A program made the translations under genes and the position numbers. Below the pieces are notes generated by a model. It ran no database searches, had not been told where the DNA came from, and worked only from the letters and a program-made list of their open reading frames with translations. Shown here piece after piece: positions 4,069 to 60,137 of a stretch of 64,000 nucleotides of DNA. Source of the DNA: Lytechinus pictus (taxonomy: Eukaryota); NCBI RefSeq assembly GCF_037042905.1, contig NC_087251.1, positions 14,076,001 to 14,140,000 of the forward strand. Reading direction: 5' to 3'. The first letter of the stretch is position 1. Each line of letters begins with the position of its first letter.

Positions 4069-5004
4069 GATGAACCAACCCTATTCAACTGATACGGAAT
4101 CGAAGCTACAGTATTTAGTGGAGTCAAAATTCGGCGTATACATGTATATAAATCATTCAACTGTGTATTTAGCGAACATATTTCAGATCTGCAGGTTTGC
4201 ATTTTAATGTCTAAATGAATACGACAGCGCCAACTATGTTGGACAAACCATGCACCTATGAAGAGATGGACATTCATCGCTTAGATAATGAATTCACTAA
4301 CAGGTGACGGTAATTGTCATCTGAATAACATTCTCTTCATACTAGTCTTCTTTGGTCCTATGATCGTCACCGTGAGAAGGGACTGAATTAGTTCGTTATT
4401 GGACATTTATATTTCACAAATTATATGTTGATAGAAAATCAATGAAATAATGGATAATCGATGTGCAGTTTTTGTTTACCTTTGTTAATCTTAGTTCCAT
4501 GTGTTTTATTTGGGGAAATGTCTGCATATTTTAATATAGAGGCAATATTGTGATTGATTGTTTACCATTTAAAATTCAATTTTCCCAAGTTTCTCCATAA
4601 TATTCCAGATATACGTGGCACATAACATGTGTAGATCGTGTATCTTTCAATGTTATTGAGGTCCTTATGTGTGAGCGGTAGTTAGCGGATCGAATAATAT
4701 CATATTTTATATCATAAAAATCGTCTGCTTCTCAAGTTTGCTGATCCATATATGAAGCAAATTGACTGAAAGGCACATACTGAAACAGGGGATCAGCCAA
4801 CAAAAGTCAAGACCGGGAAACTGTTCCGTCTTTGGGTGATCAGATACGTCTTGGTAGTCATGGTAATTGCTATTGTTACAACACCTGTATGTTCTCATTA
4901 AGATGCGCATAACCAGGTGACGGTGACTATCATTGTGTCAAAGAAATGCTCGCGTTAATCGTCCATCTTTTCATAGGTCCATGGACAAACGATCATGACT
5001 TTAA

Positions 5005-5606
5005 AGGACAAGTCCACCCCAACATAAAGCTGATTTGAATGAAAGGAGAAAAATCCAACAAGCATAGCAATGAAAACTTCATCCAGATCGGATGTAAAAT
5101 AAGAAAGTTGAGACATTTTGAAATTTCTCTTAATTTCACAAAACAGTTATATGCACATCCAGGTCGGTATGCAAATGAGGAGACTGATGACATCATCCAC
5201 TTACTATTTCTTTTGTATTTTATTATATGAAATATGAAATATTCTGATTTTCTCCTGATGTCACGTGAAAGGAGCTTTATTCCTCCCTGGATATATGGAA
5301 TTACCATTATTCTAACATCTTTTGGCTCAGTCAAGTTGGTCATTATTGTCGGTCAAATATGTAAGAATTGAAATATTGTATAATTCAAACAATAAAAATC
5401 AAAAGAAATCATGAGTGAGGGACATCATCGACTCTCTCATTTACATGTCACTGAGTTGTGCATATTACTATTTTGTGAAAAATAAGTTAAACTTCAAATT
5501 GTCATGATTTTCTTATTTTACATCCGAGTTGGATGAAATTTTTAGCGTTGTTGGATTTTTCTCTATTGATTCAAAGCAGTATTTTTTTCTGGGGTGGACT
5601 TGACCT
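5005..5606. mobile_element. Kolobok-like MITE
   Basis: TTAA|AGGACAAGTCCACCCC ... GGGGTGGACTTGACCT|TTAA, with long imperfect internal inverted repeats. Confidence 0.85.
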
Positions 5607-6171
5607 TTAACAATATACATATTGGATAATTATTTCTGCATGCTGATGACTAGAATGGAAGGTTGACATCTGCTATTCTTTTTTCATTTTGACTGAATTT
5701 GTGTAGTGCGTTTGTGAAGTTTGATAGGATTCTTTTGGAACCGCGTTTAGATTCTCTGCCGCTTAACGCAGTTCATTCAGTGAACCAAGAATCGTTTTGT
5801 TTTTTAGAAGTTTACCCTAGTCCTACACAATGTTATTTCACTCTTGCGGGAAATTTCGACTTTTTCCAGGAAAGGTTCGGGAAATGAACAAACTTCCAGG
5901 AAACTTCCAGGAAATCCGAAAACTACAATTAAATAACATCAAACGTAGCAACTTTTGATATTCATGTTTGTTTATATACCTCAATACAATAGCTCAAAAA
6001 TTTTCGCTCGTGCTCCGCGGTCGCATTTCTTGATTTAAAGGTCAACTTCACCCCAGAAAAATGTTAATTTCAATCAATAGAGAAAAATTGATCAAGCGTA
6101 ATATTGAAAATTTCATTAGAACAAAATAAGAAAGTTACAATTTAAAAGTTTCCCTTTTCACAATACACTTA

Positions 6172-7018
6172 GGCCGTGTTTATGCTTCCACTTTTCAGGC
6201 CAGAATCAGCGTTTCCAAACGTGATTAGTCCAAAACACGGTTGCGTCCATGTTTACTTTCATTTAAACGCTGTTTCAAAACACCGATCGTAAACTCACAA
6301 AAAGGTGCGTTTGTAAACGTCGTTTGACCAGAATCAGGCTTTCTGGGGAAGTATAAACAGAACCACGATCGTAAACGTGTTTAAATGACGTCATTTGGTA
6401 CTTGCTTCCGGTGAGATGAAAATCCGCGGGCAAATACAGTCGCATTGCTCCATGGTCGCATGTTACCTCCACGGAATTACCTCTCATCTCCCTTGTTTTG
6501 CATTAGTACTATTACTAGTATTACTCTTCCAATTTGTCATCACGATGAATGTTGAGGGATTTACACCAAAAAATAACCTGGAACATGAGTTATAATGAGG
6601 AGACATCGCAAGATGCCCCAGTAGCATAAACAAATAGACATTTATTTTTATTTTGTATACTTAATATTCTTTTCTTTTTTTACTATTATCCTCACCATGG
6701 TGGAAATTATATGGCTATATCAAGAAGCTCCATGCAATGACTAAAATATCGGAAATTGTTCGATGTTTATATAACAGTCGACGTAGCTTCCCCATAACAA
6801 CACTCGGAAAAAAAAAACTTTCGAAAAAGGGCGCGCCCAATTTGACCTCGCTTTCCTGCTCAACGAAAATTACGATGCGAAGCCAGCTGGAGATCGTGAT
6901 TTCGCCTCTGAAAAAAAGGTGCATAAACAGCACTCCCAGAGCCACGTTTACGATCGGCGTTTTGGATCGACGTTTGAAAACACTGATTCTGTCCTCGCAA
7001 TGGAAGCATAAACACACC
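6172..7018. mobile_element. PIF/Harbinger-like MITE nested in Kolobok
   Basis: TIR ggccgtgtttatgcttcca / tggaagcataaacacacc; inserted at the host TTA (TTA left, CTA right). Confidence 0.75.
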
Positions 7019-7121
7019 CTATATGCACAACTAATCAGTGACGTGCTAATGAGAGAGTCGATGATGTCACCCACTCACTATTTCTTTTGTTTTTGTTGTT
7101 TAAATTATACAATATTTCATT

Positions 7122-7375
7122 TTAATCCATATTTAATCCATATTTTATTGTTCGAAGAAATACCCCGAAAATTTGCTTTGCCTAATTGATCGTGGGCCCG
7201 GCAGCGCTGTGCAGCGCCAGCTCGACGAGGCTCTATCCCTTTAATCGTTGAACGCCAAATAAGGTAGCAGCAACTCCCATCTTTTAACGTCTTTTGGTCT
7301 GACGCGCCCGGGGTTTGAACCCCCGACCTCCTGGTTGTGAGCCGGACGCTCTACCAACTGAGCCAACACACCGGT
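7122..7375 (-). mobile_element. tRNA-derived SINE (Val-CAC-like head)
   Basis: Minus strand shows A box TGGCTCAGTTGG, anticodon-like loop CTCACAA and B box GGTTCAAACC, then a non-tRNA body (ccaaaagacgttaaaagatgggag...) and an (atatggattaa)2 tail. Confidence 0.85.
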
Positions 7376-7961
7376 ATTTTTTTTAACAGATTTGACATTA
7401 AGGTCCAACTCAGCTGAACCAACAATGGTAATACCACATGTTCAGGGAGGAATAAAACCTTTTTTTTATAGGACAACAGGGAAAAAATTGGAAATATTTC
7501 ATATTTCATATAATAAAATATAAAAGAAATAGTAAGTGAATCATGTCATCGGTCCCCTCATTTGCATACCGAACAGGGTGTGCACATAACTGTTTTAAAC
7601 TGTCATAACTTTCTTGTTTTACATCCGATTTTGATGAAATTTTCAGTGTTATGCTAGTTGGATTTTTCTCTATTTATTCAAATCAACTTTTGTTGGGGTG
7701 GACTTGTCCTTTAAATAAGATTATTATAAAGAAAGCGTATATTAACAATGCCCCGTTTTCAGGTGGGACTCGTACTAACAAGAAAATTCATGATACCACA
7801 ACACTCCCGTACAGAGGAGGTTGGTGATACGACATGAACACTCCCGTACAGATGAGATAGGAGGTTGGGGCATGGACCCCCCCCCCACAAAAAAAATGAA
7901 AAGAACAGAAAAATTGAAGAATTGAATGGAGAAGGGGGAAATTAAATTCTATGACAACATA

Positions 7962-10113
7962 CAGTGGAGGAGACCGGGGTTAGTTGGCCCCCTTTCCTCT
8001 TTAGAAAGTGAAAGCTTTGTATTGCTGCATCCATGGACCTATTACGAAATAGGTCCATGCTGCATCCAAGGACAACTAATTCTGGTATTCAGCTAGCCTC
8101 CTCTAGCTACATAAGTAACTGTGTCCCTCAGCATGTGAATATGAAGGCCATTAGACCACACAGCTGTAAAATTTGCTCTCCTAAAAGTGACATCTCTACT
8201 TTAGATAGGTGAATGCTATGTAAATTATACAAATCAGTGTATAATTGAATCATTTTATATTGTAGCAAAACTTATTGCTGAATATTATTCATAGGTAACT
8301 TTCTTTATTTATCTTGGAATAAATGTATTTTGTTTAGTAGGTGCACGGGGCTACTTGCCCCCCTTGTACATTCAAGCCAAATATGAGCTGATGACTTAAT
8401 GTCTCATACAAAATAGCAAGAATGATAATAAAAATTTTGTCTTAAATTCGGACCCTATCTTGTACATTTTGTGTTCTATATATGGCTCTAGACTACACCT
8501 TGTTTTATCCTGAATTGAAAATATGGCCCACAAATTGTCATTTCGTTTAAGAAATGTGTATGCTTCGATCATGCCAAGAACATGCTGACAGAAAAAAAAA
8601 GCCTGCATCGGCAAGTATAGGGAAACTTAACACAAATGAAGGCGCGGGAAGGAAAATAATATGACAGACAGGCAGAAGTGGATGTCATTGTTGAAACATA
8701 ATGATCTGGTAGAAACTTAAAAGTGTGAAGTATGGTGGGAAAAAAAATGACCAGACAAATTCTCCATAATTCATAGAACGTGATCTTTGTCTAAATTTTT
8801 TTTCACCCACATTTTCCCCGATCGGCCGCTCGAAGTTAATTTTTGTTTGTTTCTTTGAAGGGGTAATATATTTATATATATAATATCATAAGCCTTATTT
8901 AAAAAGTGTGAGCTTTTTGTTTATTTATGTATTTTGTTTTAAAATTCAAATATTCTTGGCAATGTTTATGATCCTAAACGAGATGTGATTCTAACTGAAT
9001 AATTGCTGCGAGCGCGAAGCGCGAGCAGAAATTTTTAATATACGTTTTCATCTGATAAAAAAGGATCTGTTACCGGCAGCTTGTTAGCCATGAAGACGTT
9101 ACATATTTCAACTATCAAATATTTTCGAATTTTCAAATAATTTTCGAGCTGAAATATGTTTTGTATATTGACTTCAAGATTTGATATTTAAGCTCCATAT
9201 TGAGCAAGATATGTAAATCACCTAAAAGGCGATGCGAGCGCGAAGCGCGAGCAAAAATTTTATATCCCGGCATGAAAGATTTTTTACTATTACTTTCCAA
9301 GTCTTCCCCTTATCTTATTCACTCGTCTTCCTCCTTTTATATATGTTTCCCTTTCTTTTTTTCTCCTCTCTTTTCCCTTTTTCTTCTCTTTTTTTCTTTA
9401 TTTCCCTTTTTTTTTTTTTTTTTTTTGCTCCGCCAATAGGAGGGGGGGGGGGGGGGGCCGGGCCCCTCGCCCCCCCCCCCTGGATCCGCCTATGCTGTCA
9501 TGCCGTGCATACCCACATGAAAAAAAAACCACCACGCACGTGCGGGTCTCCATGTGGGTGCTCGCGTGTGCCCCGGCGTCGTACGTACAGGAACGGCTCA
9601 TAGACGGCTAGCTGCGCTGCTTTTGAATGCGAATTTACCCACCGTTAGTTGCATCGAAAAGTTACATGACAGTTTTTTTTTCTTTATATTTTTTAAGGGG
9701 AATCAACTCTCATTTCCTTGAGAAGGTATGCACATATTCCCCCCCCCCCCCAGATGGTCACACTTCTTTTGTGACAAAAACATGGGGGGGGGACATTTGA
9801 TATTGTGTCCCCCCCTGAAAAAATCATGGGGGGGGACACGCCCCCCCGTCCCCCACCGATTGACGCCCATGTCTGTACATAAAAATCACTCAAAAGTGTT
9901 TGCAAAATGTCTTCAGCTGACAGATGTTAATTAACCTTAATTAAGATCTTACTAGAAATATGTAGGCCTAGACTTTGTATTTGCTTTGGGAAAGTTAGTT
10001 AAATAGTTGTTATTAACATTGGTAATGTACTTCAAACATGTTGATTTTTGTGTTATTAGGCTGCTATAATGTGAAACATAAAAAAGGGGCCCAACTAACC
10101 CTGGCCTCCCCTA
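7962..10113. mobile_element. Tc1/mariner/pogo-like non-autonomous element with nested fragments
   Basis: TA|cagtggaggagaccggggttagttggcccc ... ggggcccaactaaccctggcctcccc|TA. The interior holds other repeat ends (ctggatccgcctatg at ~9480-9494; ttgacgcccatg at ~9860-9871). Confidence 0.55.
8032..8059. mobile_element. 28-bp hairpin mini-element, CATG termini, 7-bp TSD (P-element-like)
   Basis: CTGCATC|CATGGACCTATT-ACGA-AATAGGTCCATG|CTGCATC: perfect 12-bp stem and perfect flanking duplication. Confidence 0.75.
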
Positions 10114-10144
10114 TATATTTCTACAATAAAAAGTCAGCAGAGTT

Positions 10145-10271
10145 GTATAGAGCGCGCGTAGCACTGCACTGGTCCTACATTACATGTAGATGGCGCTACA
10201 AAGCCACGTCGACTTATTTTCTGTGACTGTGCGAAGACTTGTGATCGATGGGACTGTTTGCTTGTTGTAAG
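10145..10271 (+). promoter_or_regulatory. Probable Sec23 promoter and non-coding first exon
   Basis: CpG-rich non-repeat DNA with AGATGGCGCT and GCCACGTC motifs, ending at donor AAG|GTAAGA (10271/10272); a second donor CG|GTAAGT is at 10368. The ATG exon at 21002 starts with an acceptor, so an upstream exon is required. Confidence 0.5.
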
Positions 10272-10459
10272 GTAAGAGAAAAACGGCTATAATTGTTTGT
10301 TCCTTTTACAAGTTGATGATTTTTAGATATTTGAATTGTTGCTTTGTTTCATTTCCGACAGTAAACGGTAAGTGAGCATTGTAATCTAAATCAAGACAGA
10401 TCCAGACCCAAATTAAATTGCAATGAAACTGTAATCTACTTCACTCTTCAGTACTCCTT

Positions 10460-10508
10460 TAACCCAGAGAGCTCCCGCCCGCGTAGCGGGCGGGAGCTCT
10501 CTGGGTTA
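10460..10508. mobile_element. 49-bp perfect hairpin element with 9-bp TSD
   Basis: GTACTCCTT|TAACCCAGAGAGCTCCCGCCCGC-GTA-GCGGGCGGGAGCTCTCTGGGTTA|GTACTCCTT. Confidence 0.85.
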
Positions 10509-10663
10509 GTACTCCTTCAGTCCCATTCGCATTATTTTGCGTAGGCTACTGTAGATAGCCGTAGGCGCTGGCTAGGCTTAGATTTTGGTTTGGAATGAAT
10601 AACAAGTTAGATCTAAGCACGGAAATAAAATGAAGGGGAAAGCTGATCGCCACTATCGTGCGT

Positions 10664-10687
10664 AGTCACGTGACTGCCGCCATCTTG
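10664..10687. promoter_or_regulatory. Adjacent E-box/CLEAR-type palindrome and YY1-type site
   Basis: AGTCACGTGACT (10664-75) immediately followed by GCCGCCATCTTG (10676-87), about 400 bp downstream of the candidate exon 1. Confidence 0.5.
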
Positions 10688-10758
10688 CTAGTGACTTTAG
10701 CGTTCATGTGCAATTTCCGAATTCCGTGTAACTAAACTAACACTAACAGTAACACTAA

Positions 10759-12089
10759 CAGTAGAGGCGCACGGCCAAGGCAATATTGGAGACTATCTCC
10801 AATGTGGGAGATTATCTAGTCTTGAGGACGCAATGATGATGATTTTTAAAATAATGAAATATACTTCTTCATCATTGACGTCTTGACACTCTTCCCCCAG
10901 TCGCATAAGAGAAGGACCATAATAAAGATGGATTTCCCTCGGAAATCCATCTTTAGAAACAAAAATCACCTTAATTGTATTGATTTCATTAATTTTCACA
11001 CCTTCCTACGCCTAATGCGTAGGAAGGTTTTAAAAATTATAACATGAAAATGTGAAAAATTTAAGGTTTCTTACCTAACTGATGCTGAGTAAACCCCTCG
11101 ATCCACATGTAAACAACGTAAGTACAATAGCGTCGACCCTTGAACCGCTTATGTATGACGTACTTCTGGCTAGCGATGCCGTTCTGATGAATAATTTATA
11201 GAAAAACAAATTATTTCGCAAATGTTAAAATTGGTATGAAACTTACAATTATTTTTAATTTACGTGATACATTTTAACATTTGCGAAATAATATTTTTTT
11301 TCTATAAATTATTCATCAGAACGGCATCGCTAGCCGGAAGTACGTCATACATAAGCGGTTCAAGGGTCGACGCTATTGTACTTACGTTGTTTACATGTGG
11401 ATCGAGGTGTTTATCCGGCATCAGTTAGGTAAGAAACCTTAAATTTTTCACATTTTCATGTTATAATTTTTAAAACCTTCCTACGCATTAGGCGTAGGAA
11501 GGTGTGAAAATTAATGAAATCAATACAATTAAAGTGATTTTTGTTTCTAAAGATGGATTTCCGAGGGAAATCCATCTTTATTATGGTCCTTTTCTTATGC
11601 GACTGGGGGAAGAGTGTCAAGACGTCAATGATGAAGAAGTATATTTCATTATTTTAAAAATCATCATCATTGCGTCCTCAAGACTAGAGATTATCTCCAA
11701 TATCAGAGACTTTTGTAAAGAATTTTGGTATCCTATTTTAGAGACAGTCTCCAGTTTTGGAGTCCAATTTCCTTTGTTTACATTTGCTGCAAAAGGATAA
11801 CCTTGGCGGCAAATAAAAATGTGATAAGCAGATTCCTCATGAAAAATTACCCCTTTTCACCGTCTACTTAAAAAATTCACCGTCTACTTTTGTTTTGATA
11901 AGGATTTTTGTTGTCAATCACACACAAAACAAATGGGCTTCTGACCTCAGTGAGACAAAATTTTGGGTGGAAAAAATCATGCTTTTGTTGGTGTTGTTTC
12001 TTTTGTCCTTTTGCAAAGCAAGTCTCCAATGTGGGAGATTGTCTCCCCTATTGGAGAGAGTCTCCCATATTGGCCGTGCGCCTCTACTG
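10759..12089. mobile_element. CAGTAG-family MITE (~465 bp, 5-bp TSD ACTAA) split by an 870-bp palindrome
   Basis: ACTAA|CAGTAGAGGCGCACGGCCAA ... TTGGCCGTGCGCCTCTACTG|ACTAA. Confidence 0.9.
10817..11686. mobile_element. 870-bp foldback element, TAG...CTA termini, 9-bp TSD (AcademH- or MULE-like)
   Basis: GAGATTATC|TAGTCTTGAGGACGC ... GCGTCCTCAAGACTA|GAGATTATC; ~415-bp arms with few mismatches around a ~40-nt spacer (11233-11270). Confidence 0.9.
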
Positions 12090-12359
12090 ACTAAAGTAAA
12101 ACTAAAGGCCACCGCACACCTTACGACCCGACTGGCTTGCGACTGAGTGTGGGGAGGTGTGACGTCACAACTCTTGTCAGCTTGAGAGTCGCAGACCGTT
12201 CAGAGACAAGTCGCAAGGAAAATCGTAAGCAGTAGAGGTGCACGGCCAATATTGGAGACTGTCTCCAATCACTCTAAGCACCAAGGTTATTAATTCCTGT
12301 GTTAAAAAAGTGAGTGCACGCGAATTAAATGTTGGACTTAAATTACTAGATCTTACCAT

Positions 12360-12825
12360 CAGTAGAGGCGCACGGCCAATATGGGAGACTCTCTCCAATA
12401 GGGGAGACAATCTCCCACATTGGAGACAATCTCCCACATTGGAGACTTGCTTTGCAAAAGGACAAAAGAAACAACACCAACAAAAGTATGATTTTTTCCA
12501 CCCAAAATTTTGTCTCACTGAGGTCAGAAGCCCATTTGTTTTGTGTGTGATTGACAACAAAATTCCTTATCAAAATAAAAGTAGACGGTGAATTTTTAAA
12601 GTAGACGGTGAAAAGGGGTAATTTTTCATGAGGAATCTGCTTATCACATTTTTATTTGCCGCCAAGGTAATCCTTTTGGAGCAAATGTAAACAAAGGAAA
12701 CTGGACTCCAAAACTGGAGACTGTCTCTGAAACTGGATACCCAAATTATTTACAAAAGTCTCTGATATTGGAGATAATCTCCCACATTGGAGACAGTCTC
12801 CAATATTGGCCGTGCGCCTCTACTG
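12360..12825. mobile_element. Intact CAGTAG-family MITE (5-bp TSD ACCAT), inverted relative to the other copies
   Basis: ACCAT|CAGTAGAGGCGCACGGCCAATAT ... ATATTGGCCGTGCGCCTCTACTG|ACCAT. Confidence 0.92.
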
Positions 12826-13917
12826 ACCATGGAGCTCCATGACGAAATCTATTCTTAAATTAGACTCTAGATATTACTAAATTGAAAAAAATGTATAAAT
12901 ATTACTCGCCTGGTCTTTTCTTGGGGTATTGAAGCCTTTTTGTCCAGAACTTGCTCAACTTTTGCGGCAAATTTTGTCGCCATAGGGTTGTGCACATTCT
13001 CATTTAATACTGGTTGTCACGTGACACGGCAATGTCGTTAGGCTGTTTGGCCTGTATTCAAGGCGTTCTATCCGTTATGATTTTATATTGAATGAAGCAA
13101 ATTCCATCAGGTATAGGCCCCTATCAAGTCAAAATCGATACAGGGATCGAGAGGGGGGGGGGGGGTGGAGCCAAAAATTTCCCAGTCACATGGTATGAAA
13201 ATGATATTTTTTATGATTGTCCACGATCATTAGGGCAAACCCGTGTGTGGCAGTACGGTAGCGTGATGAGTAAAAAAAAATAAAATAAAAGAAAGAAAGA
13301 GGGCCAATGTAGGCATACATTGCGCGTGGGAATAAAGTTGCTTTATATGTTCCAAGCGAGTGAAGCAAGCGAGAAAAAAACTTTTTGTGCAAATCTAAAT
13401 TTGAGATAGATATCTTAACTTACACTTTTCCTTTTCTTTTCATTAATTCCCTTCATTTCTTTTTTATCTTGGTTGTAGAACTTTCGGGGGCCCCTAGGCC
13501 TAACCCTTCCATCGTGTACCCCCAGTGCAATATCAGCAGGTGGGTCTCGATAACTCTGGATATTTAGTAATTAGACCTATTTATAGAAAAATATAACGTT
13601 AATGTTTTGACCCCTTCCCCCCCAAAAAAGGAAAAACAATTATAAACTAAGTTATATACATCCCCCTTTTCTCATTTTGCTTTTTATTTTCTCTATTCCC
13701 TCCTTATTTTTTTTTGGGGGGAGGGACCTTTTCGGGGAGCACCGCCCCTAGCTACGCGCCTACCAGATGAAGAGGCGAGCGAGCAAAACCTTTGTCACTT
13801 TTATTACAAATATCAATTTTGCAATAGATTTTGACATTACATTCGGAATTATTCTCGCATGCATTTTTCTTTCCTTTTGCTTTTTTATGGCCTTTTATTT
13901 CTCTTCCCTTTCTCTTT

Positions 13918-13920
13918 CTG

Positions 13921-13964
<44 letters not shown>

Positions 13965-13965
13965 T
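13918..13965. repeat. (TTTC)n microsatellite
   Basis: About 10 tandem TTTC units. Confidence 0.9.
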
Positions 13966-14179
13966 TCCTTCCTTCATTCCTTTTCTCTTATCCCGTTTTT
14001 TTTTGGTGAAATCCACTGGACCGGGGATCAAGGGCCAGCCTGCATGCCCCCGGCGGTTTACGCCTCTGCCGTGGATGTAAGCTATATATACGCATGATCT
14101 TAATCTTCATTATGATTCAAACTATATAGAGGCGCATCCAAGATTTTCCAAATTAAGTAGGGGGGGGGGGGGCGGGGTG

Positions 14180-14650
14180 AATTTTCTCAAGTAAAATTTG
14201 ACAACTCCCAAAAAAGGTTCTTACTAAAAAAAAAAAAACGGTCATTATATTGTCTCGCGTAAAGTTTGACAAGTTAAAAAAAAATGGTCACTCAAAATGA
14301 AAGTCATTTTGTCCGCGTAATATTCGGCAAGCCCCCCCCTCCACAAAAATAAGAAAAGGGAAAGTCATTTTGTCCACGTGATATTTGGCAACCCCCCCCC
14401 CCCAAAAAAAAAAAAAAAAAAAAAAAAAAAAGGTTTTAACTATAGCAATGATCGAAGGTCATTTTGTCTCGCGTAAAATTTGACAATTTTTTTATAAAGT
14501 TGTCACTAAAAAGAAGGTCATTTTTTTCACCATTGATTATATTTGGCAAGCCCCCAACCCCCACCCCCATAAAAAAGTTTGTCCCTAAAAGTGATGTATA
14601 GAAAGTCATATTGTTAATTTGTTCCCAGTAAAATTTTGAATTTGGCAATA
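14180..14650. repeat. Degenerate ~50-70 bp tandem array
   Basis: Recurring core gtcattttgtc(t/c)cgcgtaaaatttg(a/g)caa separated by poly-C/poly-A runs. Confidence 0.65.
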
Positions 14651-17244
14651 AAAAAAAAAGGCCAAAAAGAGAAAAGAATATGAACGAAACATCCCCATTA
14701 CAAATAATGCTGTACGTGATTCTCATGAGGGGGGGGGGGGCACATAACTAGTATTAACAACATATTTAATTCCAAAATGTTTACTATAAATCTCAAAAGG
14801 GGGAACGGGCAGAAATGCTCACCCCAACCCCCCCCCTCCCCCCCCCCCCCCGCCACTGATTCCAATCAATAATGACTTTTCTCTGCAATACTAATGCTTT
14901 GAAATCAAGATACTGAAGATTGATACGCTTAACATAAATTATGAACGTCTGACAAAAAGATAACCAACCGATCACCTGACCGATCAGCTGACCAGTACGC
15001 GTATCACTTCGGAGTTGATCACTCGTCGCAGGTGTGTGGAACGCTCACCGAAAATCAACAAAAAGGGCCTGAAATGTAAGTTTAACAATAATCCATTTTA
15101 ATTTCAACTATTTTGAGAACTTACTCAATTAAATGCGACCAAATAAAAGTTATATCTTAACACTGCAACTTGTATTAATGCGTACATTTACCAAAGTCTT
15201 GGGTTGGAAATCAGAACAGCATTGTCCAACCCATAATTTGGGTAATGTCGCCTATGAGGTCCATACATGTTAATGTTTGGACCTCATTGGTACTAGGAGT
15301 GTCTCCAATGTGGGAGATTATCTCCAATATCAGAGACTTTTGTAAAGAATTTTGGTATCCTATTTTAGAGACAGTCTCCAGTTTTGGAGTCCAATTTCCT
15401 TTGTTTACATTTGCTGCAAAAGGATTACCTTGGCGGCAAATAAAAATGTGATAAGCAGATTCCTCATGAAAAATTACCCCTTTTCACCGTCTACTTAAAA
15501 AATTCACCGTCTACTTTTGTTTTGATAAGGATTTTTGTTGTCAATCACACACAAAACAAATGGGCTTCTGACCTCAGTGAGACAAAATATTGGGCGGAAA
15601 AATTCATGCTTTTGTTGGTGTTGTTTCTTTTGTCCTTTTGCAAAGCAAGTCTCCAATGTGGGAGATTGTCTCCCCTATTGGAGAGAGTCTCCCATATTGG
15701 CCGTGCGCCTCTACTGGTAAGGATTTGACATGTCGAATCCTTATGACTGGATCGCAAGCTCAATCCAACTTCCAGCCAATCAGACAGCAGAGTTGCACGA
15801 CGCGTATATGATAAACAACGCGCATACGCAGTAGTAAGCGCACTTTCTCAGTTGCTATGGCAAAAAGCAAAAGGCGCATGCATGAGTCGCAGATCGAATC
15901 GCAAGGTGTGCGGTGTCGAGGCTTATGACCACCTTGCGATTCATCTCCCCTCACTCAGTCGTAAGCCAGTCGCAGACCATTCGGGTCGTAAGCCCGGGGG
16001 GGCCACTTACATTGACGAGTGGATACCATGCGCGACCACAAAAACAAGTAAACAAGTCTTTTTCAAGATAGAGCATGTTACGTACGTAACGTTATAAGGG
16101 TGTCAAAAACACAAAAATATTGAAAAAAGGGTATCTCTTCGCTCTGAAAAATATACGTGTTTAGGGTCAAATATGCGGGGATGATAAAACAAAATCAAAA
16201 TGTTTTATAGAGGATGTCCTTTTTGCCCCAACACTACGTGTTTAGAGTCCGATTTGCGCGAGGTGTGGAAGGTGGGGCCGTAATAAACCAAAATAATGGT
16301 GTGTAAAGGTAAAACCGACGACCGACGGACCCGTGACATAACAATATCGCTGTACTTGTTTAGGGGTTCATTTCAGGGAATACATGCCAAGAGTATCGTT
16401 TTGTTTCCAATACTTGTTAAGGGGTGCATTTTCAGAGTATGGAAAAAACATCGCTGTGCGTACTTGTGGCTCAATTTTGGGAATACTTGCCAATAGTATT
16501 TGTTTCCAATACTTGTTAAGGATAGGGTTTCACACGCCAATACTTGTTAAGGGCAACGTTCTCGCTACCACGAGTCACGGTTGGCGGGCGCCGACAACCC
16601 TGAAAATTTTCAGGGCAAATCCGCCAACCGTGAACTTCCCCGACAACTGTGGCCGACAACTGTGGCCGACAACTGTAAAACAGGCCTAGATCTACACAAA
16701 AACTGAATAATATATTAAAAAACAATGTGCTTTTCAGATCCTAAAATAAACTTGTCGATTATTTCGTCCACGATTTCTTCCCGGGATTTCTTTGACTCAC
16801 TACTAACTACGATACGACCTCGACTCGAGGCCCAATCTCCTTTGTGGGAAGCGCGAAGATGTCTACCCCCGTGTTTACCTCGCATTTGCGTATCGCATTG
16901 CTCACATTATTTACGTCTTTAAAATGGTAGTAAATGCGCTCAAAAACAAGTGAGGGGAGACGGGGGGAGACGGCTATCGTGGGTTACTGGGTTGGGCAAT
17001 GTAATTTAGATTATTATGAATTTCAGTTGATATTGTCACTTATTTTGTCAAAAATAAAGTGTGTCAACAATAATATGAAAATTCGATCGAAATTTAACTT
17101 CATCTCGTCCCACTAAGCTACATCGACTACATGAATTCACTGAATGCTTTTCTGATGACACTGCCGTAGAGCGAATTGAGAAAATTATTTCCAGATCACG
17201 TTAATAATGACAAAGCCAAAGGAATGGATTGATTTAATGCCCAA

Positions 17245-19715
17245 CTCATTTACTTACAGCAAAATTATTTATTCACATTTAAATTCCGATTTTACTCCAT
17301 AATTTCCAAAGTCTTGATCTCTACATCAATCTTTTGAAAGTGTTGATTAATTCGGCGACGGCATGTCTACCAAATTCTGTGCCACTGCACTTGCGCTCGC
17401 AACGGCCACATTCAGAATACAAATCGCACATGGCATAAAAATCCTTGGTCCGGGGATCCCAGTCTTTCAAAATAAGATGGGATCCAAAGCTAATTTAATT
17501 TGAATGTTTTTTTATATATTCATTGAATCTGTTATAATTTTCATTTTTTAAGTAATAATCTTTATTAATTCGCATTTTTTATCATTACGACTCATTTTGT
17601 AAAGTGAGTTATACGTAGTGTATTTTCATTTGTATTGTTTTATTACTCTTTACCTGCCAATTAATAATGAGCGCACCTGTCACGGGCCTGAGAAATGTTT
17701 TAGTCATCACAGTGAATGCTTTATGAATTTGTTGTACAATTGCTTAACAACTACGATTTAAAATAAAATATTTGAAATTAATTTGTGTAAAGGAGAAAGA
17801 GAGAATAATGGGGGGTGGTCGTGGGCAATGTAGATGAAAATGATGGGATGTTTGTGACTTTGTGGGGAGGGGATTGGCGAAAAGAAGTCAATGTTTGTAG
17901 CGAATGAAATTAATATTCATTTATGGATGTGTCTACTGTGATTGTGGCTGCATAATCTTTATGGCTATTGGAAAATCCACCACGGGTCGGGAGGGGTACG
18001 TGATTCAATAGATTTCGATAGAAGTACACATTCAACAAAGTGGAATTGGCAATTCATTCACAGATATTCATTTCAAGTACGAATTATTGAAGTTGATATG
18101 TGTGAACGTTTTAGAGGATACATTGTATATGTATTTCGTTTGTTCACGCCCACATGAGATGCTAGTATAATTTGAATATCGTTGGATGAAGTTTTCAAGT
18201 TCACTTATGTCTTTATGTTTTGTATATCGGAATTGTGCTTTTAACATGGAGTTATCTTTACAATGTCGTTAGCCTAATTATACTGCGAGTGGATGATATT
18301 TATGAAGTGAGTTGGAATGTGAATGAGACGCCCCAAAGCCGATGGCACATGATCTAATTAGTATTCACTTTCTTGGTTGAGCCAATCATTGTGCTTGAAA
18401 ACGGGTTTCCCGAATTCCCGCCCTTGGAATGTGTCCCACGTGTGTGACCTGTTAACCTGTTGTTTGAGTGCGGATCAGCTGATTTCGTGACCTCAAATAT
18501 TCTTCATGTTGTTTACGCTGGATGGGGGCTATAAAATTAAGAAGATCTTTCTCTTTTTTCATTTTTAATAAACTGTTCGTGAATTTCTGTAAATTTACAA
18601 CTAAACCTATAGTGATATTGTGATGCAATTTATTGAATCACGTACCTCGATCTTCCCACTCATGGTGCAAGAAAACATTTAAAAAATTTAAATTCACCAA
18701 AATATACATGTAAAGAAAGATTATTCAGCCGTCATCATCAGTAGAAGTATACACGTCTATAAAAATGTATTCGCTTCGAATATTGACTTCTTCACCAATC
18801 CCACACACACGATCTCAACATCCCCTTGTCATTGTCCACACCACGACCCCTCCCCTATCGCTCTCTCCCTTCGACCATCCTACAACCCCACCCCTCTTCC
18901 TCTTTCACACACGCTGTATTTGTAGGCCTACATAATGTATTATGTAAAAATAGAAATCTGCTTTCCTGTCAATTAACCTGTACTTTCAAAACATTTTAAA
19001 TCGCAATTAAGAACAACAAAATCGTAATATTAAAGTATTATGAATGACTAAAAATATTTCTCACGCTCGTGATGAGCACATTCATTATTTTATAGGTGAG
19101 TAACGAACAATACAAATGAACACAGCAATAATTGACAGTGATAAAAGAATCTTGATTGGATATTATTAGTATAAACATCATCAACAGAAGTCTTATGAGA
19201 GTTGTTTCAGTGAGTATCGAATAAACAAAACAAAAAACCATGCAAATTTTATAAGTTGGGGACCCGTCTCATGAATACCGATGCCCATTATTTGGAAGCC
19301 TCGGAAGAAAACTTCCGAGGCTTCCAAATACCTCGGTCACATTTGCTCTACGGCGGCCGTACGGCGAGTCGAAAACAGCCGTTTTATTCATTTTTATTCA
19401 AACCACCTATATTCAGCTGGTACAACAATTTTAAAAACGGCTGTTTCCGACTCGCCGTACGCCGCCGTAGAACAAATGTGACCGAGGTATAAAGTCGGAA
19501 CAATCTTTGGATTTAGTAAGGACGTGACGCGGCGCAAGCTCAAAAGGCTACGCATGCGGTCCGTAGATGTAGTCGGTCATTGACATATTAAGAAACAACA
19601 CGCATTCACAAAATTAATCGCACTTTCTAAGGATGTAGCGATCTAAACATTGGAAAGCATGGAGTTAATTTATCGATGCCATCGATGTGAATAAATCTAA
19701 AACTGTAAGTATAAA
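17245..19715. repeat. Old diverged inverted repeat (arms ~17245-17960 and ~18760-19715)
   Basis: The reverse complement of 17250-17355 aligns with 19610-19715 (aattaatc..cactttc..gatgtag.gatc..atggagt..atgtgaataaat..ctgtaagt). Further inverted pairs: tgagaaatgttttagtc / gactaaaaatatttctca and agaagtcaat / attgacttct. Confidence 0.7.
19329..19489. mobile_element. 160-bp palindromic MITE (TA/TWA-flanked, Harbinger-like)
   Basis: ~55-bp TIR tacctcggtcacatttgctctacggcgg / ccgccgtagaacaaatgtgaccgaggta; a diverged sibling is at 59975-60137. Confidence 0.85.
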
Positions 19716-20217
19716 ATGATATTGACTTCAATTCATTTCCCAAGACAAGTTGACCTTTTTAAGTTATCAGTAATTGCCTTTCTGCTTCAATCGCAATTCG
19801 CGCAACCGTTACAGCAGTGTGGCCGGAGAAGCATTGAATAGATATAAAATGTGGTGCATTTAGCAGCAATCTAAGCTCGTCGATATTGATATTTTCGATA
19901 GCTACCGCGCTTCCCTCCCAGCGCTAACCCTCCCCCCCTGCATGCTTTGCACGCACCGAGGCCGCTGCGCGGCTTGCGTCACTTCGCACCGCCAAGCATC
20001 AGAGTGAACCTGGCGAGAACGTTGGTTAAGGGGTGCATTTTAAGAATATGGAAAATACGTGTTTAGGGTGCTTTTCAAGACCCCGTGGCCGTGCATGGTA
20101 TCCACTCGTCACTGGAAGTGGCCCCTCCGGGGTCGTAAGGTGTGCGGTGGCCTTAATATGCTCCATGAAATTATTACACGGAATAGAAATATGTCATGTT
20201 TTCTGCATTTAACATTA

Positions 20218-20345
20218 GGCGCACGGCCAATATGGGAGACTCTGTCTCCCAAATCTCCCATATTGGAGACTTGCTTTGCAAAAGAACAAAAGAAACACCA
20301 CCAACGACAGAAGCGTAATTTATTCCACCCAAAATTTTGTCTCAG
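20218..20345. mobile_element. Older truncated CAGTAG-family fragment
   Basis: ggcgcacggccaatatgggagac...cccaaaattttgtctca matches 12367-12516 with substitutions. Confidence 0.7.
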
Positions 20346-20972
20346 CTCACTAGGGCCGTCTGCACCATTCCGAGTTTTCAAATTAGCGCGCTATTTCTGA
20401 TCCGGCAAATTATCCCGCTCTGAACAATCTCGATATTATTTGCAATGGAGACGCAATTATCACGCTAGTTCGCAGGATTAATCTCGAGATTGCAATCCCA
20501 ATTCAATTTGGGATTATTTGCAAAATACCGCGCTATTTTACGAATTATCCTGCTAATTCGCAGGTGCAGATGCACTCAAGATTGGACTCGGGGAAATTTA
20601 TTCATGATGTCAGTCCATAATGCAATTCGCGTTCCACTTCCGCCTTGGTCAAAACACATTGCGTACCATACACATGCGAATGTCAACTTACCTGCGCACG
20701 CTAGTATTAGATTGGTATTATTATTGTTTGTCCAAGAATTTTGTTTAGGAACCATAATACCGGTAATTTGCGGAAGGATCTGCTCCCTCTTTGAGAGCCA
20801 CAATAACAATGTTTATTGTGCCCCCCTTTTGAAAGTCACAGCATATATTTTGTTAATAGTAATATGTCTTTCATACACAAGTGAGGACTTTTTTTTTTGG
20901 GGGGGGGGGGGCTTTTCAAATTTTACATGGACGAAATTTAGAGGGCTCAATACATTTGAACAACATCTCTAA

Positions 20973-37075
<16,103 letters not shown>

Positions 37076-37774
37076 TAAATAATTGTCTCAGTTGCAGGAA
37101 GATAAAAAAAGTTTCCTCCATTGTGACGCTGTCACATTCTGCTGCGTCATACGCGTCACTTATCATTTACACTTTTACAAACTTGTTACCTGATGGCTTA
37201 CGTTTAGATTTATTAACACTAACAGTTGTATAACATCTTTTGATGCTGCCCTCATGGTTCCATTTTCTATAAGGTTTAGTGAAAATTAGTAAATGCCTCG
37301 ACTGTGCTTTTATCTTACATACATGTATCTTGGCAAATGTTTGAACTAATGTAATGAGATGAATAAAGTCAAATGCATCCACATTCCCATATATGTGTTC
37401 TTGTTGATGATGTTGTCTAGAGGGTTCTTAGGATCAAAGGTCATATTTTGTTAGATAGCTTGAATGCACTCTGCCATGTAAAATGTTATTGATTTTTTCA
37501 GATTGTCTGTTTTTGTCCATCATAATATACTTTATGCCTAGAATTTTGTCTGATAGTGATGCTTCCTGCGATATTCCCCTAAGAGTCTCATATTCTAAAG
37601 GTTATATTTTAGAATTATAAATTATGACGCATTCTTTTTACTGCTTGTTGATATTTTTAGGCAGAAATCTAAATTTGATTTCTTGTTGTTTTGAGATTCA
37701 TGGTCAAATCAGTATTGCTGTTTTTTTTATTCATCATGGTGTCTGTCGGATAAAATTAAAAGAAGGTGGATTAA

Positions 37775-38380
37775 AGGGATGGTCTAGGCTGCAGATATTT
37801 ATATCTTAATAAATAGAGTAAAATTCACAGAGCAAAATGCTGAAAATTTGATCAAAATCAGATAACAAATAACAAAGTTTTTGGATTTTAAAGATTTGCA
37901 TTACTCCGGTGAAACAGTTCTAGGCATGTGTTCATGAATATTCATTAGGTGGGCTGATGATGTCATCTCCCCATTTGTTCTTTTGTATTCTATTATATGA
38001 AATTAGGTTAATTCAAATTTTTTTCTCCCAAGAACTAAAACAATTGGATTGACAACTGATTAAAATGCATAGTTATTTATTGCCGCAACTTATTTCATCA
38101 TAATGGAGACACATCATTTACACATGTATGAAAAAATGAAACAAATATGATTTCTTGTAATAACATAACAAAAAGGAAAGTGTGGATGTGATATCATCAG
38201 CCCACCTAATGAATATTCATGACAATGTGCATATAACTGTTTTCACAAAATATTGATAAACTATTAAATTCAATAACTTTGTTATTTGTTATCCGATTTT
38301 GATGAAATTTTCAGCATTTTGCTCTGTGAATTTAACTCTTATTTATTTAGATATACATATTTTCAGCCTGGACCATCCCT
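37775..38380. mobile_element. Kolobok-like MITE
   Basis: TTAA|AGGGATGGTCTAGGCTG ... CAGCCTGGACCATCCCT|TTAA; ~200-bp imperfect inverted arms. Confidence 0.88.
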
Positions 38381-38519
38381 TTAAGAATACCTGTGTTGTG
38401 TGTTAAGATGAGATTTTACGTTCTAAAGCCCAGTGTCTTGTTTTGAAAAAGCATGCAGGAAAATTGCAGTTGTGATTCTTGAAGAATAAAATATGTTGCT
38501 TTTCATGTGATTCAAATAG

Positions 38520-47700: not shown

Positions 47701-49424
47701 TTTTCTTGTATCAAAATTTATTAAGACTATATATAGCTGAATATCAGGGATTCTGGATATCATTATCTGTTTGTACCAAGATGTTTGCATTATCACTGTA
47801 GAACTCTTTGAAAATTCTCATTTAATAAAGGACTTTTTATTCTTGCTTATATTTTTTCAAAGAATTGCCATAGATTGGTCCTGTATTACCTCAAGATTAC
47901 TTAATCATATCAGTTTCATTTTAAATCACATTCATACTGTAGTTAAAGGGATACTCCAGGCTGAAAATAATACAATTTGAATAGATATAAGAAAATGAGA
48001 CAAACAAAACACTGGAAATTTAATCAAGAATCGGACAGGGAATAACAAGTTGAATGACATTTTAAAATTTTGCATTATTCTATTGAAACAGTTCTATGCA
48101 TATCTTCATGAATATGCAATGAGCAATCAATGATGTCCTATCCCTGCTTATTCTTTAAAATTTGTTTTATGAAAACATATCTATTCAAATATTGAGCTCC
48201 AATATAAAGAAAATAGACAAATGTAAAATAGGCATTTTGGCAACTTATTTTGTTACAAGGTAGATATCATGGTCACACTTGTATGAAAATAGTATGATAT
48301 GATAATAATTTCATTTAATGAAATATTAAAGAAAAAGGAAAGTGGGGATTTGACAGACATCATTAGCCCACCTATTGCATATTCATGACAGCATGCATAT
48401 ACATGTAATTAAATTTGCTCACCATATAACCTTTTTACTTGTTAATCAGATTTTGATAAAATGTTAGCATCTTGCTCTGAATTTTCTTGCACATATTCAG
48501 ATTTATTTGATTTTAGCCCGAGTACCCCTTTAAAAGTTGAGTAAGGAGCATTTCATGAAGAGTTTTGCGAGTGATTTTCACAACAAATATCCTCCCAGCC
48601 ATTCAGCTGCAAGGATTTCAGTATATGACAGTAAATATCACTCGCAAGGTTGCTTCATGAAACAGTGCCCTGATCTTACCTGCCAAAGCTGCTAGTATCT
48701 TTGCTGCTCGATAATCCTTGTTTTTAGGCGTGACATAGACACAGTGATCCTCATTACACTCTATGACTTTTCTCCTGGCTTGAGTGCATGCCACACGTCC
48801 AATTGAAATATAAGCCAAACACATAATTACAAACGGAAAGCATATCCCTGTTGTCAGTATGATTATTGAGGCTACTCCATTTTCAAAGAAGTCTGGAAGA
48901 CAGAATCCGTATGTGGGAAGATAAGTGTAGTTGCTGCTGGACATGAATGGCACTGTTGCCATGAACACGGCAAATCCCCAATTCAGGAGTATGGTGATCC
49001 ACACTCGTGACTTGGTAAGCATCTGATGGTATTTCAGAGGTTGATTGACGGCAATGTACCGCTCCATGCTCAGACTCGCCAGAGTCCATGTTGAGACGAT
49101 CCCGACAACGAGGTACACAAATCCCAGTATCCCACACCATTCTTCGGAGTAGATCCACCCTTGATAAACATGGACAGCCGATGCAAAGGGAAGTAGGAGG
49201 ATTCCTGTGGTGAGATCAGCGATGGCTAGATTGAGCAGGAATCCTGATGTAATGGTCTGGATCTTAGGTGATCTCATGATTATGATTATAACAAGTAGAT
49301 TTCCTAGGATAGTTACAATTGCTGTTAGAATCATCAAGGTTCCTAAAGTGTAGCTTAGTGCAGGACCTAACAAGTTTTCTGATTCAGGATTATGTTGATT
49401 GGATGAGTTTAGTAGATCATCCAT
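44261..49424 (-). CDS. Class A (rhodopsin-like) orphan GPCR, GPR161-like, 411 aa, two coding exons, antisense to Sec23
   Basis: complement(join(44261-44751,48680-49424)) = 1236 nt with a phase-1 intron GCA G|GTAAGA...ttccccag|GT GTA. Motifs: GN (TM1), NLAIAD (TM2), C3.25, ERY, W4.50, CWLP, NPWLY, helix 8 FR. Confidence 0.93.
45974..46158. mobile_element. CWG-flanked Harbinger-like MITE in GPCR intron
   Basis: CAG|gtgagtgtttcataaag ... ctttatgaaacacccac|CTG. Confidence 0.7.
47947..48529. mobile_element. Kolobok-like MITE in GPCR intron
   Basis: TTAA|AGGGATACTCCAGGCTGAAAA ... TTTTAGCCCGAGTACCCCT|TTAA; homologous to 37775-38380. Confidence 0.8.
48680..49424 (-). CDS. GPCR exon 1 (N-terminus, TM1 to start of TM6)
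   Basis: ORF 48618-49424, MDDLLNSS...DYRAAKILAALA; donor GTAAGA at 48679. Confidence 0.93.
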
Positions 49425-56301: not shown

Positions 56302-57418
56302 CCAGCAATGCACTTTGGGGAGAAGGAGATATGGCAAAGATATTTCAGAGATTTAATTGGCAATTATTGCAGCATTTACACAAGAAGTGTTGACTTGACT
56401 GTGTCTGTTGTGCCTGGGGTTGGGGTGGTTATTATTATGCTCATCAGCTCTTGTTTGAGCCATGAAACATGTGTTTGGAAGTCAGGTATGACATGCCTCC
56501 CCTGCATGTGTCGGGTAGTCCCAAAGTCACCACCACAATGTTAACTCCTCCTTAATTCAGTCACATTCACATTTATAATCAAAATTTCTGCTTTTGGATT
56601 AATGCCCTAGAGCAGTCTCAAAATGTACTAGAGGAAATACATGCATTTGATGGGGCTAAAAATATGCTCACAGGTGCAATACACTGATTTTGTTTCATTG
56701 TTCATGCTAATAGGCATCGGGTCATTATAAAACCAGAGGATTGTTGGATGTTATTATTTTTAAGAATAAAATGGAAGTGTAAGTAGACTAAAGATAGATG
56801 ATGCTTATTAACGATAAGGATCTATTTGCAATGTCCATACCAATATGACCTTCATGTTGGATATTACCCTCCTGGAATTTGATATTTTTGGGGGAAAACA
56901 GATCTTATCATAGATCTTCAAACCATGTTATGTTACAACAGAAGATAAAGAGTCTGTTGTACGATCTCTCTCAGAGCAATCACTTCAAATTTGATGAGCG
57001 AATGGGAAAAACAACAGACTTTGTTTATCTTTCAAGCTGATACTCTGGTCTGGACGTTAAACTAAAGTGCAATTGTGGATTCCTAGCTTCAGTTTGTACC
57101 TACATGTATTATTGACTGTCAGGTTTGGAAGCATTTTCTGAAGTCGTCCACTGTTGGATAAATAAGCTATTTGGTGGTAAATCGACTTGATCATTCATTT
57201 TTTCTCCTGAATCTTAAATGGCTCATAATGCAATGGCTTCACTGTAATGTTCACATACACACATGATTACAAGATGCTGGATAGCTGGTACACTGATTTA
57301 CAGTCTATTACCTACATAGGCATAGGCTCGTCATTAAAACCACAATGTTAGAATATATAATCTCATTACAAACTAAAATCAGCAACAGTACTTTGTGTTG
57401 CTATACTACTGTTATTAA

Positions 57419-57950
57419 AGAGATGCTCCGGTCTTAAAATATCTATATCTATCAAATAGAGTAAAATTCACAGAGCAAAATGCTGAAAATTTCATCAAAA
57501 TCAGATAACAAATAAAGTTATTGAATTTTAAAGTTTAGCAATAATTTGTGAAAATAGTTATATGCACATCATCATGAATATTCATTAGTTGGGCTGATGG
57601 TATCACATCCCCACTTTCCTTTTTTTTAATTTTATAACATAAAATCATTATTAGTACATTTTTTCATACATATGTGAATAATGTGTCTCCTTTATAATGA
57701 AATAAGTTGCAGCAATGAATGTCTAATTCACTTAATAAGTTGTCAATATCCAATTTTTTTTCAGTTCTTGGTAATTTTGAATAAACCTTATTTCATACAA
57801 TATAATACAAAAGAACAAGTGGGGATATGACATCATCAGTTGCTCATTGAATATTCATGAAGACATGCCTAGAACTGTTTCACCGGAATAATGCAAATCT
57901 TTTAAACGCCATAACATTTCATAACATTATTTTCAGCCCAGAGTACCCCT
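57419..57950. mobile_element. Kolobok-like MITE (internal deletion in right arm)
   Basis: TTAA|AGAGATGCTCCGG ... CAGCCCAGAGTACCCCT|TTAA; shares aatagagtaaaattcacagagcaaaatgctgaaaattt with the 37775 copy. Confidence 0.8.
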
Positions 57951-59974: not shown

Positions 59975-60137
59975 TACACTTCATTCACATTTCCCCTGCA
60001 GTGGCCGTACAGCGAGCCGAAAACAGCTGTTTTATTCATTTTTATTCAAACCACCTGTATGTAGCTCGTAAAAAATGTTAAAAATTGCTGTTTTCGACTC
60101 GCTGTACGGCCGCCGCAGGAGAAATGGGACTGAGGTA
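59975..60137. mobile_element. Diverged copy of the 160-bp palindromic MITE
   Basis: Shares gttttattcatttttattcaaaccacct with 19329-19489; TTA on both flanks. Confidence 0.75.

Follow-up and report, generated by a model that had tools for sequence, protein, structure and literature searches.

A nested stack of non-autonomous DNA transposons in the front intron of Sec23 in the sea urchin Lytechinus pictus

Upstream of the first coding exon of the Lytechinus pictus Sec23 gene lies a stretch of about 8 kb (positions 12106-20153) in which transposon ends occur within other transposons, raising the question of whether this stack was built in place by successive insertions, was brought in partly or wholly assembled, or was shaped by some preference of the inserting elements. 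It was analysed within 64,000 nucleotides of RefSeq assembly GCF_037042905.1 (NC_087251.1, positions 14,076,001 to 14,140,000, forward strand), hereafter the window, in whose coordinates all positions are given. We consider the serial insertion of separate non-autonomous families into the Sec23 front intron, including local hopping, to be the probable history of the locus, which is an unusually clean example of the well-known nesting process and not a new kind of element.

The boundaries of each element between 9500 and 21400 were tested by script for inverted ends and a flanking duplication. The seven elements of the stack (H, A, B, C, D, E and F) and the neighbouring Z and Y all show terminal inverted repeats (TIRs) and an exact target-site duplication (TSD) (Table 1). 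As such, the nest described in a sequence-only reading of this DNA is real, with all seven named elements standing far above shuffled sequence. H, a miniature inverted-repeat transposable element (MITE), is the host of two branches, namely A with B and C inside it, and D with E and F, while Z harbors Y. Excision of the inserts leaves 409 bp of H (12106-12229, 15722-15992 and 20140-20153), of which 112 bp (27%) are spanned by 14 copies of an 8-bp motif, RTCRYARR. A window-wide scan for TIRs with TSDs recovered all nine elements, together with a tenth, the 49-bp palindrome at 10460-10508, which had been overlooked in the earlier inventory and which is either a micro-element or a remnant left after internal deletion or excision. 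The same scan on eight shuffled windows gave 0, 0, 0, 0, 2, 0, 0 and 1 hits, and when 9000-22000 was shuffled 30 times, a single hit with a TSD of at least 8 bp came up in two of the shuffles. With a looser cut (TSD of at least 5 bp, TIR 11/14) the shuffles averaged 2.6 hits in 9000-22000, and the case for B therefore depends on its 8-bp TSD and on how cleanly A is restored without it. Short-TSD hits of the 9000-22000 scan were dropped as palindrome artefacts within long inverted repeats, and the filter of the window-wide scan removed most of them. Once freed of B and Y, respectively, A and Z differ by six substitutions (447 sites) and one 5-bp indel, and this near-identity provides an internal check on the boundaries of both inserts.

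Table 1. Elements and Sec23 exons in the analysed part of the window
Feature	Position	Strand	Description	TSD	TIR	Length
H	12106-20153		Harbinger/Tourist-like MITE	TAA	40 bp	
A	12230-15716	+	CAGTAG MITE (hAT5-like anatomy)	GTAAG (5 bp)		447 bp without B
B	12270-15301		CACTC..GAGTG element	TCTCCAAT (8 bp)	12/15	2561 bp without C
B interior	12986-14978		Remnants of older poly-G/C repeats, missing in shorter family form			2 kb
C	12360-12825	-	Third CAGTAG MITE	ACCAT		466 bp
D	15993-20131		CCCGG MITE	GTCGTAAG (8 bp)	47 bp (42 match)	660 bp without E
E	16554-20024		CAACG element	GTTAAGGG (8 bp)	12 bp, perfect	~3.3 kb
F	19330-19488 or 19331-19487		Palindromic MITE	AT or TA, respectively		~159 bp
Z	10759-12089	+	CAGTAG MITE, sister of A	ACTAA (5 bp)		452 bp without Y
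Y	10817-11686		Foldback in subterminal repeats of Z	GAGATTATC (9 bp)		870 bp
Tenth element	10460-10508		Near-perfect palindrome	GTACTCCTT (9 bp)		49 bp
Fourth CAGTAG copy	20217-20344	-	Decayed fragment, 75-83% alike			
Candidate non-coding exon 1 of Sec23	10212-10271	+	Donor AAG/GTAAGA at 10271/10272; start not fixed			
First coding exon of Sec23	21002-21244	+	ATG at 21027			72 residues

The claim that every TIR and TSD is intact holds for the TSDs, all of which are exact, but is too strong for the TIRs. D is positioned inside the right TIR of H, 22 bp from its end, the left TIR of Z is interrupted by a 5-bp insertion, the ends of B match imperfectly and those of E extend over 12 bp. The TSD of D nevertheless leaves the outer ends of H matching perfectly over 24 bp. 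The left boundary of E was also corrected, its start being placed at 16554. C lies in the opposite orientation to A and has one extra 19-bp subrepeat relative to A and Z, and the arms of Y (393 bp, matching at 385 positions) give it a Mutator-like anatomy, with no second copy of Y found in the 64-kb window. A second copy of F, 84% alike, is located at 59970-60139. Removal of each layer restores its host, and no coding capacity is apparent by frame length: the longest of 33 stop-to-stop frames in 10500-20300 encodes 129 amino acids, and B contains no open reading frame of transposase size. A search of 9500-21500 against Rfam returned no matches. Immediately before Z, a 12-bp tandem (TAACACTAACAG, 2.2 copies; 10738-10763) continues with its last unit into the first bases of the element, and could be a junction duplication or the scar of an earlier CAGTAG insertion.

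Whether the layers belong to separate families was addressed with RNA reads and contigs. Four of 24 listed runs, none of which contains half the words, were mapped on 12830-21400, a stretch that begins to the right of Z, Y and C and past the left ends of H, A and B. Two of these runs are from organism A, one as raw RNA reads (X24) and one as contigs (X1), and the others are contigs of organism B (X9) and organism C (X10). With 14 differences in 362 letters around the Sec23 exon, organism C is a related species. What follows on joints, loose ends and differences draws on the 15, 24 and 40 listed out of totals of 429, 2423 and 941, respectively. In X24 the layers have depths of ~500 (D), ~350 (F), ~270 (H) and ~70 (A), with 3-11 in the interior of E and 2-8 in that of B. 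In X10 the summed contig depth, which does not equal copy number, reaches ~1e6 for D, the deepest family, and 2e3-5e3 for E, with 31-67 on the Sec23 exon. This sharply unequal depth excludes a common 8-kb unit and agrees with the earlier reading of the layers as separate multi-copy families, whose members are normally free of inserts.

The joints provide direct evidence of such insert-free forms. A precise E-less D joint (16545>20025), which skips 3479 letters, that is E plus one TSD, is found in all four runs (384 reads in X24; one contig each in X1 and X9 and 11 in X10). D-less H joints (15970>20130 and 15971>20131) are present in three of the four runs (seven X24 reads, one X1 contig and nine X10 contigs), with none in X9 among the joints listed, and they remove D plus the 12 bp by which the right arm exceeds the left in this copy. 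An F-less E joint (19327>19489; 161-bp skip) is seen in two contigs of X10, the only one of the four runs for which it is listed. Most reads of the D and H families are insert-free, and within the window C and Z are relatives of A that lack B. The multi-copy, normally insert-free state is thus seen by joints for D, H and E, by window copies for A and indirectly for B. For B, a joint that omits the 2-kb interior (12985>14979) occurs in X1 and in X9, in one contig apiece, but is weak, as its short side comprises only 25 letters, and near-identical contigs (~99% alike) run across the same interval in both runs. Short and long forms of B probably both exist, with the inner repeats of B being cargo and not layers added here, and a TIR and TSD boundary of the 2-kb interior was sought and not found.

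Several observations on the interiors and the wider distribution of the families may be added. Positions 13140-14860 in B contain poly-G/C-ended repeat remnants and 61-bp subrepeats, one of them 82% like 20889-20937, with no TSDs found. The interior of E contains four concentric decayed inverted pairs (73-95%) between 17291 and 19668, centred near 18320, which appear to be an old decayed foldback either carried by or nested in E, and a 42-bp hairpin (19289-19330) abuts F. In organism B, pieces of B, E, D, H and A reach up to 99% identity, while the Sec23 exon has no depth at all, a gap that could be accounted for by filtering or by low coverage of the host DNA. Pattern scans of metagenome contigs gave no copies of H or D, and one of viral contigs gave none of D. 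The 20-letter CAGTAG end had one match among prokaryote genomes, in a bacterial metagenome-assembled genome, which was taken as chance.

The sequence-only reading had further proposed that the stack gives an exact relative chronology. Nesting yields a partial order, in which H would precede A, A precede B and B precede C, H precede D, D precede E and E precede F, and Z precede Y; the two branches relative to each other, and Z relative to H, are left unordered. This order is valid only if each insert arrived at this locus and not pre-nested. Compared with family contigs, pieces of E differ at 6/255 to 22/289 positions and the B interior at 0/249 to 6/381, a hint that the branch comprising D, E and F may be the older one, although single contigs make poor clocks.

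Local hopping is suggested by the CAGTAG elements. All four copies of this family in the 64 kb fall in 10759-20344, three of them within 5 kb, and A and Z, which are separated by 140 bp and point the same way, have 11 substitution states and the 19-bp indel in common relative to C. Furthermore, A and Z carry the family minority base at 15497 (the other base is found in 36/43 X24 reads and 98-100% of X1 depth) and at 15353 (47/58 X24 reads and 98-100% of X1 depth), while A, Z and C all carry the minority base at 15390 (the other base is found in 35/49 X24 reads and throughout the depth of X1 and X9). As the three copies within 5 kb share minority alleles, we suggest that A, Z and C may derive from one minor sublineage hopping locally, a behaviour that has been documented for Ac, Tol2 and P in passages of PMC2753552.

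The earlier assignment of the stack to a putative intron 1 of Sec23 was supported. The coding exon at 21002-21244 shares 99% identity with residues 1-72 of a Lytechinus variegatus Sec23A-like protein and 93% with that of Diadema, and tblastn places Sec23 residue 1 at 21027, followed by ten more segments up to ~37000, with no coding exon upstream. A Pfam search with the 72-residue exon piece found no family, and the identity of the gene rests on the protein match and tblastn. The exon is expressed, with stranded RNA reads at a depth of 32-36. An X1 contig matches 21000-21244 with no differences and continues upstream with 58 unaligned letters; its overlap of two letters at 21000-21001 is what would be expected of an exon with AG at its end, from which we infer an upstream non-coding exon ending at 10271. 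Two other AG/GTRAG donors, at 11428 and 19095, both lie within elements. With the donor at 10272 the intron measures 10730 bp, comprising 9445 bp of TSD-flanked inserts and a remainder of 1285 bp, which is in line with the ~9.4 of 10.7 kb given previously and corresponds to a growth of about eightfold. The stack contains 13 AATAAA hexamers on the sense strand; no site where many molecules end is listed in the read mapping of 12830-21400, and no transcript effect of the hexamers is shown.

Taken together, non-autonomous cut-and-paste transposons from at least six families, mobilised by transposases encoded elsewhere, would have inserted again and again into a Sec23 5′-untranslated region intron of ~1.3 kb. 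H and Z would have inserted first and later elements into them, each with its family-typical target duplication, and the three CAGTAG copies would have arisen from local hopping of one minor sublineage. The enlarged intron of 10.7 kb would still be spliced out, and the insertions are presumably neutral. Several facts weigh against this history. Among the joints listed there is no empty or partly filled allele of the locus, all joints being at the family level, and no listed read or contig spans the stack. The A-less form of H and the C-less form of B are seen solely as unaligned contig overhangs (42, 75 and 85 letters), and the F-less form of E solely in organism C, a related species. Some of the X24 reads with minority CAGTAG alleles may stem from the pre-mRNA of the intron itself, and contigs drop rare variants, which limits the minority-allele counts. 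Purely random nesting, moreover, predicts neither the clustering near host ends nor the shared motif described below.

The lack of a locus-level empty allele among the joints listed also favors the alternative that part of the stack (E with F, B with C, or the whole 8 kb by way of the 24-bp ends of H) was built elsewhere and arrived as a composite. The perfect match of those outer ends, the cargo-like behavior of the B interior with its near-identical contigs in X1 and X9, and the lack of an F-less E joint for organism A among the joints listed point the same way. Composite arrival is nevertheless unlikely in our assessment: the depths of the layers differ hundredfold or more, the 384 E-less D reads of X24 far exceed the depth at the left end of E (~13), and C shares a minority allele with its neighbors A and Z, which fits a local origin. 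That the stack is an assembly artefact is extremely improbable. Three copies that are 92-99% alike and a 393-bp hairpin within 5 kb could invite mis-assembly, and no listed read or contig runs through the stack, but a separate TSD marks each junction, its length being constant within the family (5 bp in three CAGTAG copies), and the copies carry private differences; mis-assembly makes neither.

The remaining alternatives concern what drew the elements to this site. It had been suggested that open promoter-proximal chromatin attracts transposases and that insertion of one transposable element into another is tolerated as a safe haven. The 10.7-kb intron contains ten TSD-flanked elements, against ~4-8 by hand count in the other 53 kb (binomial p of 1e-5 to 2e-4), Sec23 is expressed, and passages of PMC5932611 and PMC2774946 describe a preference of P elements for promoters and of Mu for open chromatin, respectively. 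We regard this proposal as conceivable, if doubtful. The window was picked for its cluster, and events that are nested or local cannot be counted as independent. The distance of the inner inserts from the probable start reaches 9 kb, and a later Sec23 intron (23650-28325) is likewise 83% insert, being filled by one foldback. A safe haven would moreover add little within an intron that is spliced out. Serial insertion is likewise compatible with end- or motif-guided targeting, in which unrelated transposases would favor the terminal or subterminal repeats of resident elements, the cue being sequence, DNA shape or a bound protein such as a Harbinger Myb-like one, so that nests become self-feeding. 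Of the seven nested inserts, six are found 22-124 bp from an end of their host and so fall inside a 125-bp limit, F being the exception at 534 bp; if insertion were uniform, this bias would have p of 0.009-0.014. For both A and D the end falls on the final G of an H motif, RTCGTAAG, and the chance of a shared GTAAG site over pairs of H sites ranges from 0.4%, when the sites must be in register with no more than one mismatch, to 1.5%, when the 5-mer need only lie inside the 8-mer. B and Y both lie in 19-bp subrepeats, at the same end of the sister copies A and Z, and E is placed in a repeated TACTTGTTAAGG motif of D. Moreover, the Myb-like protein of Harbinger3_DR binds a 9-bp subterminal motif according to passages of PMC9710019. 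On the other side, both statistics are post hoc and draw on seven events at one locus, over half of all positions in a short host are no further than 125 bp from one of its ends, B and Y have no common target motif, insert-free copies account for most reads of the D and H families, and 227 reads flanking other D copies show no consensus (agreement 0.37). The coincidence of the two branch insertions on one GTAAG site, which the sequence-only reading had pointed out, is real as an observation, but the motif to which it belongs occurs 14 times in H, and the flanks of other D copies give no consensus. A CTCF-like motif was not found near the insertion sites with what we take to be a CTCF-like search pattern, which gave two short AGATGGCG-type hits only, at 10188 and 10678. 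Guided targeting appears unlikely overall. Rather less likely still is its most specific form, in which the ends and subterminal tracts of resident MITEs would act as landing pads for unrelated superfamilies, with the 8-bp repeat of H fixing the cut position for transposases that leave 5-bp and 8-bp TSDs. The position might be fixed via a bound protein encoded by the host or an element, possibly one that binds the H motif. Nests would in this way enlarge themselves through positive feedback, and sister copies would be contributed by local hopping.

The superfamily labels follow from ends and TSDs, and are therefore putative. H is flanked by TAA on both sides, in keeping with the TWA target duplication of PIF/Harbinger in this one copy, and resembles Tourist-like PIF/Harbinger MITEs in its TSD, short TIR and repeated subterminal motif, as characterized in passages of PMC4482050 and PMC9710019. 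It differs from the Harbingers described there in that its motif, a putative binding site like those of the Harbinger Myb-like protein, is 8 bp long, and no transposase or Myb/SANT partner was found for it. The 5-bp TSDs of A, C and Z (3/3), their CAG..CTG ends and their subterminal repeats are hAT5-like by comparison with passages of PMC12730594, and their clustering recalls hAT local hopping (parts of PMC2753552). This label is not secure, since CA..TG ends and TSDs of 2-5 bp are likewise described for CMCT-clade elements (parts of PMC12730594). No autonomous partner of A, C and Z was found in the end scan of prokaryote genomes or the literature, where a terminal word occurs in 408 papers, the 25 listed having unrelated titles.

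P and hAT elements have CA..TG ends. B and E combine such ends with an 8-bp TSD, features that do not single out one superfamily among hAT, P and Zisupton; the 8-bp TSD is given for hAT and Zisupton in parts of PMC12730594 and for P in parts of PMC5932611. The nnnTAnnn TSD of hAT Buster elements (PMC3517528) is not found in D, B or E, whose single sites have GT (GTCGTAAG), CC (TCTCCAAT) and AA (GTTAAGGG), respectively, at positions 4-5. Compared with ISL2EU (A/AT/T, ends usually GG; parts of PMC4482050), the 161-bp skip in X10 fits an AT duplication at F, with A/AT/A as the site and AC as the ends. A TA duplication fits the sequence of F equally well. We presume that such a duplication would be Tc1/mariner-like. 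Y has the 9-bp TSD and long TIR of Mutator-like foldbacks and, together with the 49-bp element, resembles them by anatomy in its 9-bp TSD and long near-perfect arms (parts of PMC2774946). According to parts of PMC4455052, the Repbase rule classifies an element by a match of its first 11 terminal bases to a classified element. H may thus be termed Tourist/Harbinger-like, A, C and Z hAT5-like and Y Mutator-foldback-like, with B, E, D and F kept outside any assignment.

The stack resembles the MITE multimers of rice and maize, in which non-autonomous TIR elements lie in each other within and across families and near genes (parts of PMC5172404). In rice, more than 10% of 6,600 MITEs are in multimers, and the Tourist-like Ditto is a target of many families (Jiang and Wessler 2001, via parts of PMC5172404). 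The present stack differs in being from an animal, in reaching four levels in one branch, in consisting entirely of DNA transposons, two of them of 2.5-3.3 kb, and in representing one locus. As in the analysis of Giordano et al. (2007; parts of PMC1914374), in which ~600,000 interruptions were used to order families, a newer element interrupts an older one, but a single locus gives a partial order of copies and not of families. Nested insertions are also frequent in Mutator-like elements (parts of PMC3903597). Our literature search found no description of these families or this locus; Repbase, Dfam and supplements lay outside the search, and the families may already be catalogued.

The locus brings together nine to ten non-autonomous elements with exact ends and TSDs, drawn from six or more families, and as a compact type specimen it is useful for curating a sea-urchin repeat library. 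It also shows a housekeeping gene whose front intron has grown from ~1.3 to 10.7 kb by very recent insertion and which is still expressed, and large presence/absence polymorphism among individuals is predicted. If the host-end bias and the shared motif proved true genome-wide, they would provide a testable cross-family rule of target choice and a caution for dating that assumes random nesting.

Further repeats and gene segments can be observed outside the front intron. Older related repeats with TTAAAGG ends, 68-84% alike and several of them palindromic, are found at 5000-7720, 37771-38384, 47943-48533 and 57412-57918, and by these ends we take them to be Kolobok-like. Homology to Sec23 ends near residue 467 of 765 (window ~36997), and no convincing exon for the C-terminal 300 residues was found in the remaining 27 kb (36997-64000), the best candidate being 61074-61193 (40%; E 0.002). 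The missing C-terminus may reflect an intron of great length, or else the gene model may be split. A 497-amino-acid L. variegatus protein matches beyond the donor near 36997, and this model may read into the intron. The foldback in the intron at 23650-28325 occupies 23812-27672 (3861 bp), has a 6-bp TSD (TATAAC) and arms that are ~90% alike, and contains 31-bp and 20-bp tandem arrays and a 276-bp repeat core. Its 6-bp TSD and TATG end recall IS3EU (TAYGG), as described in passages of PMC12730594.

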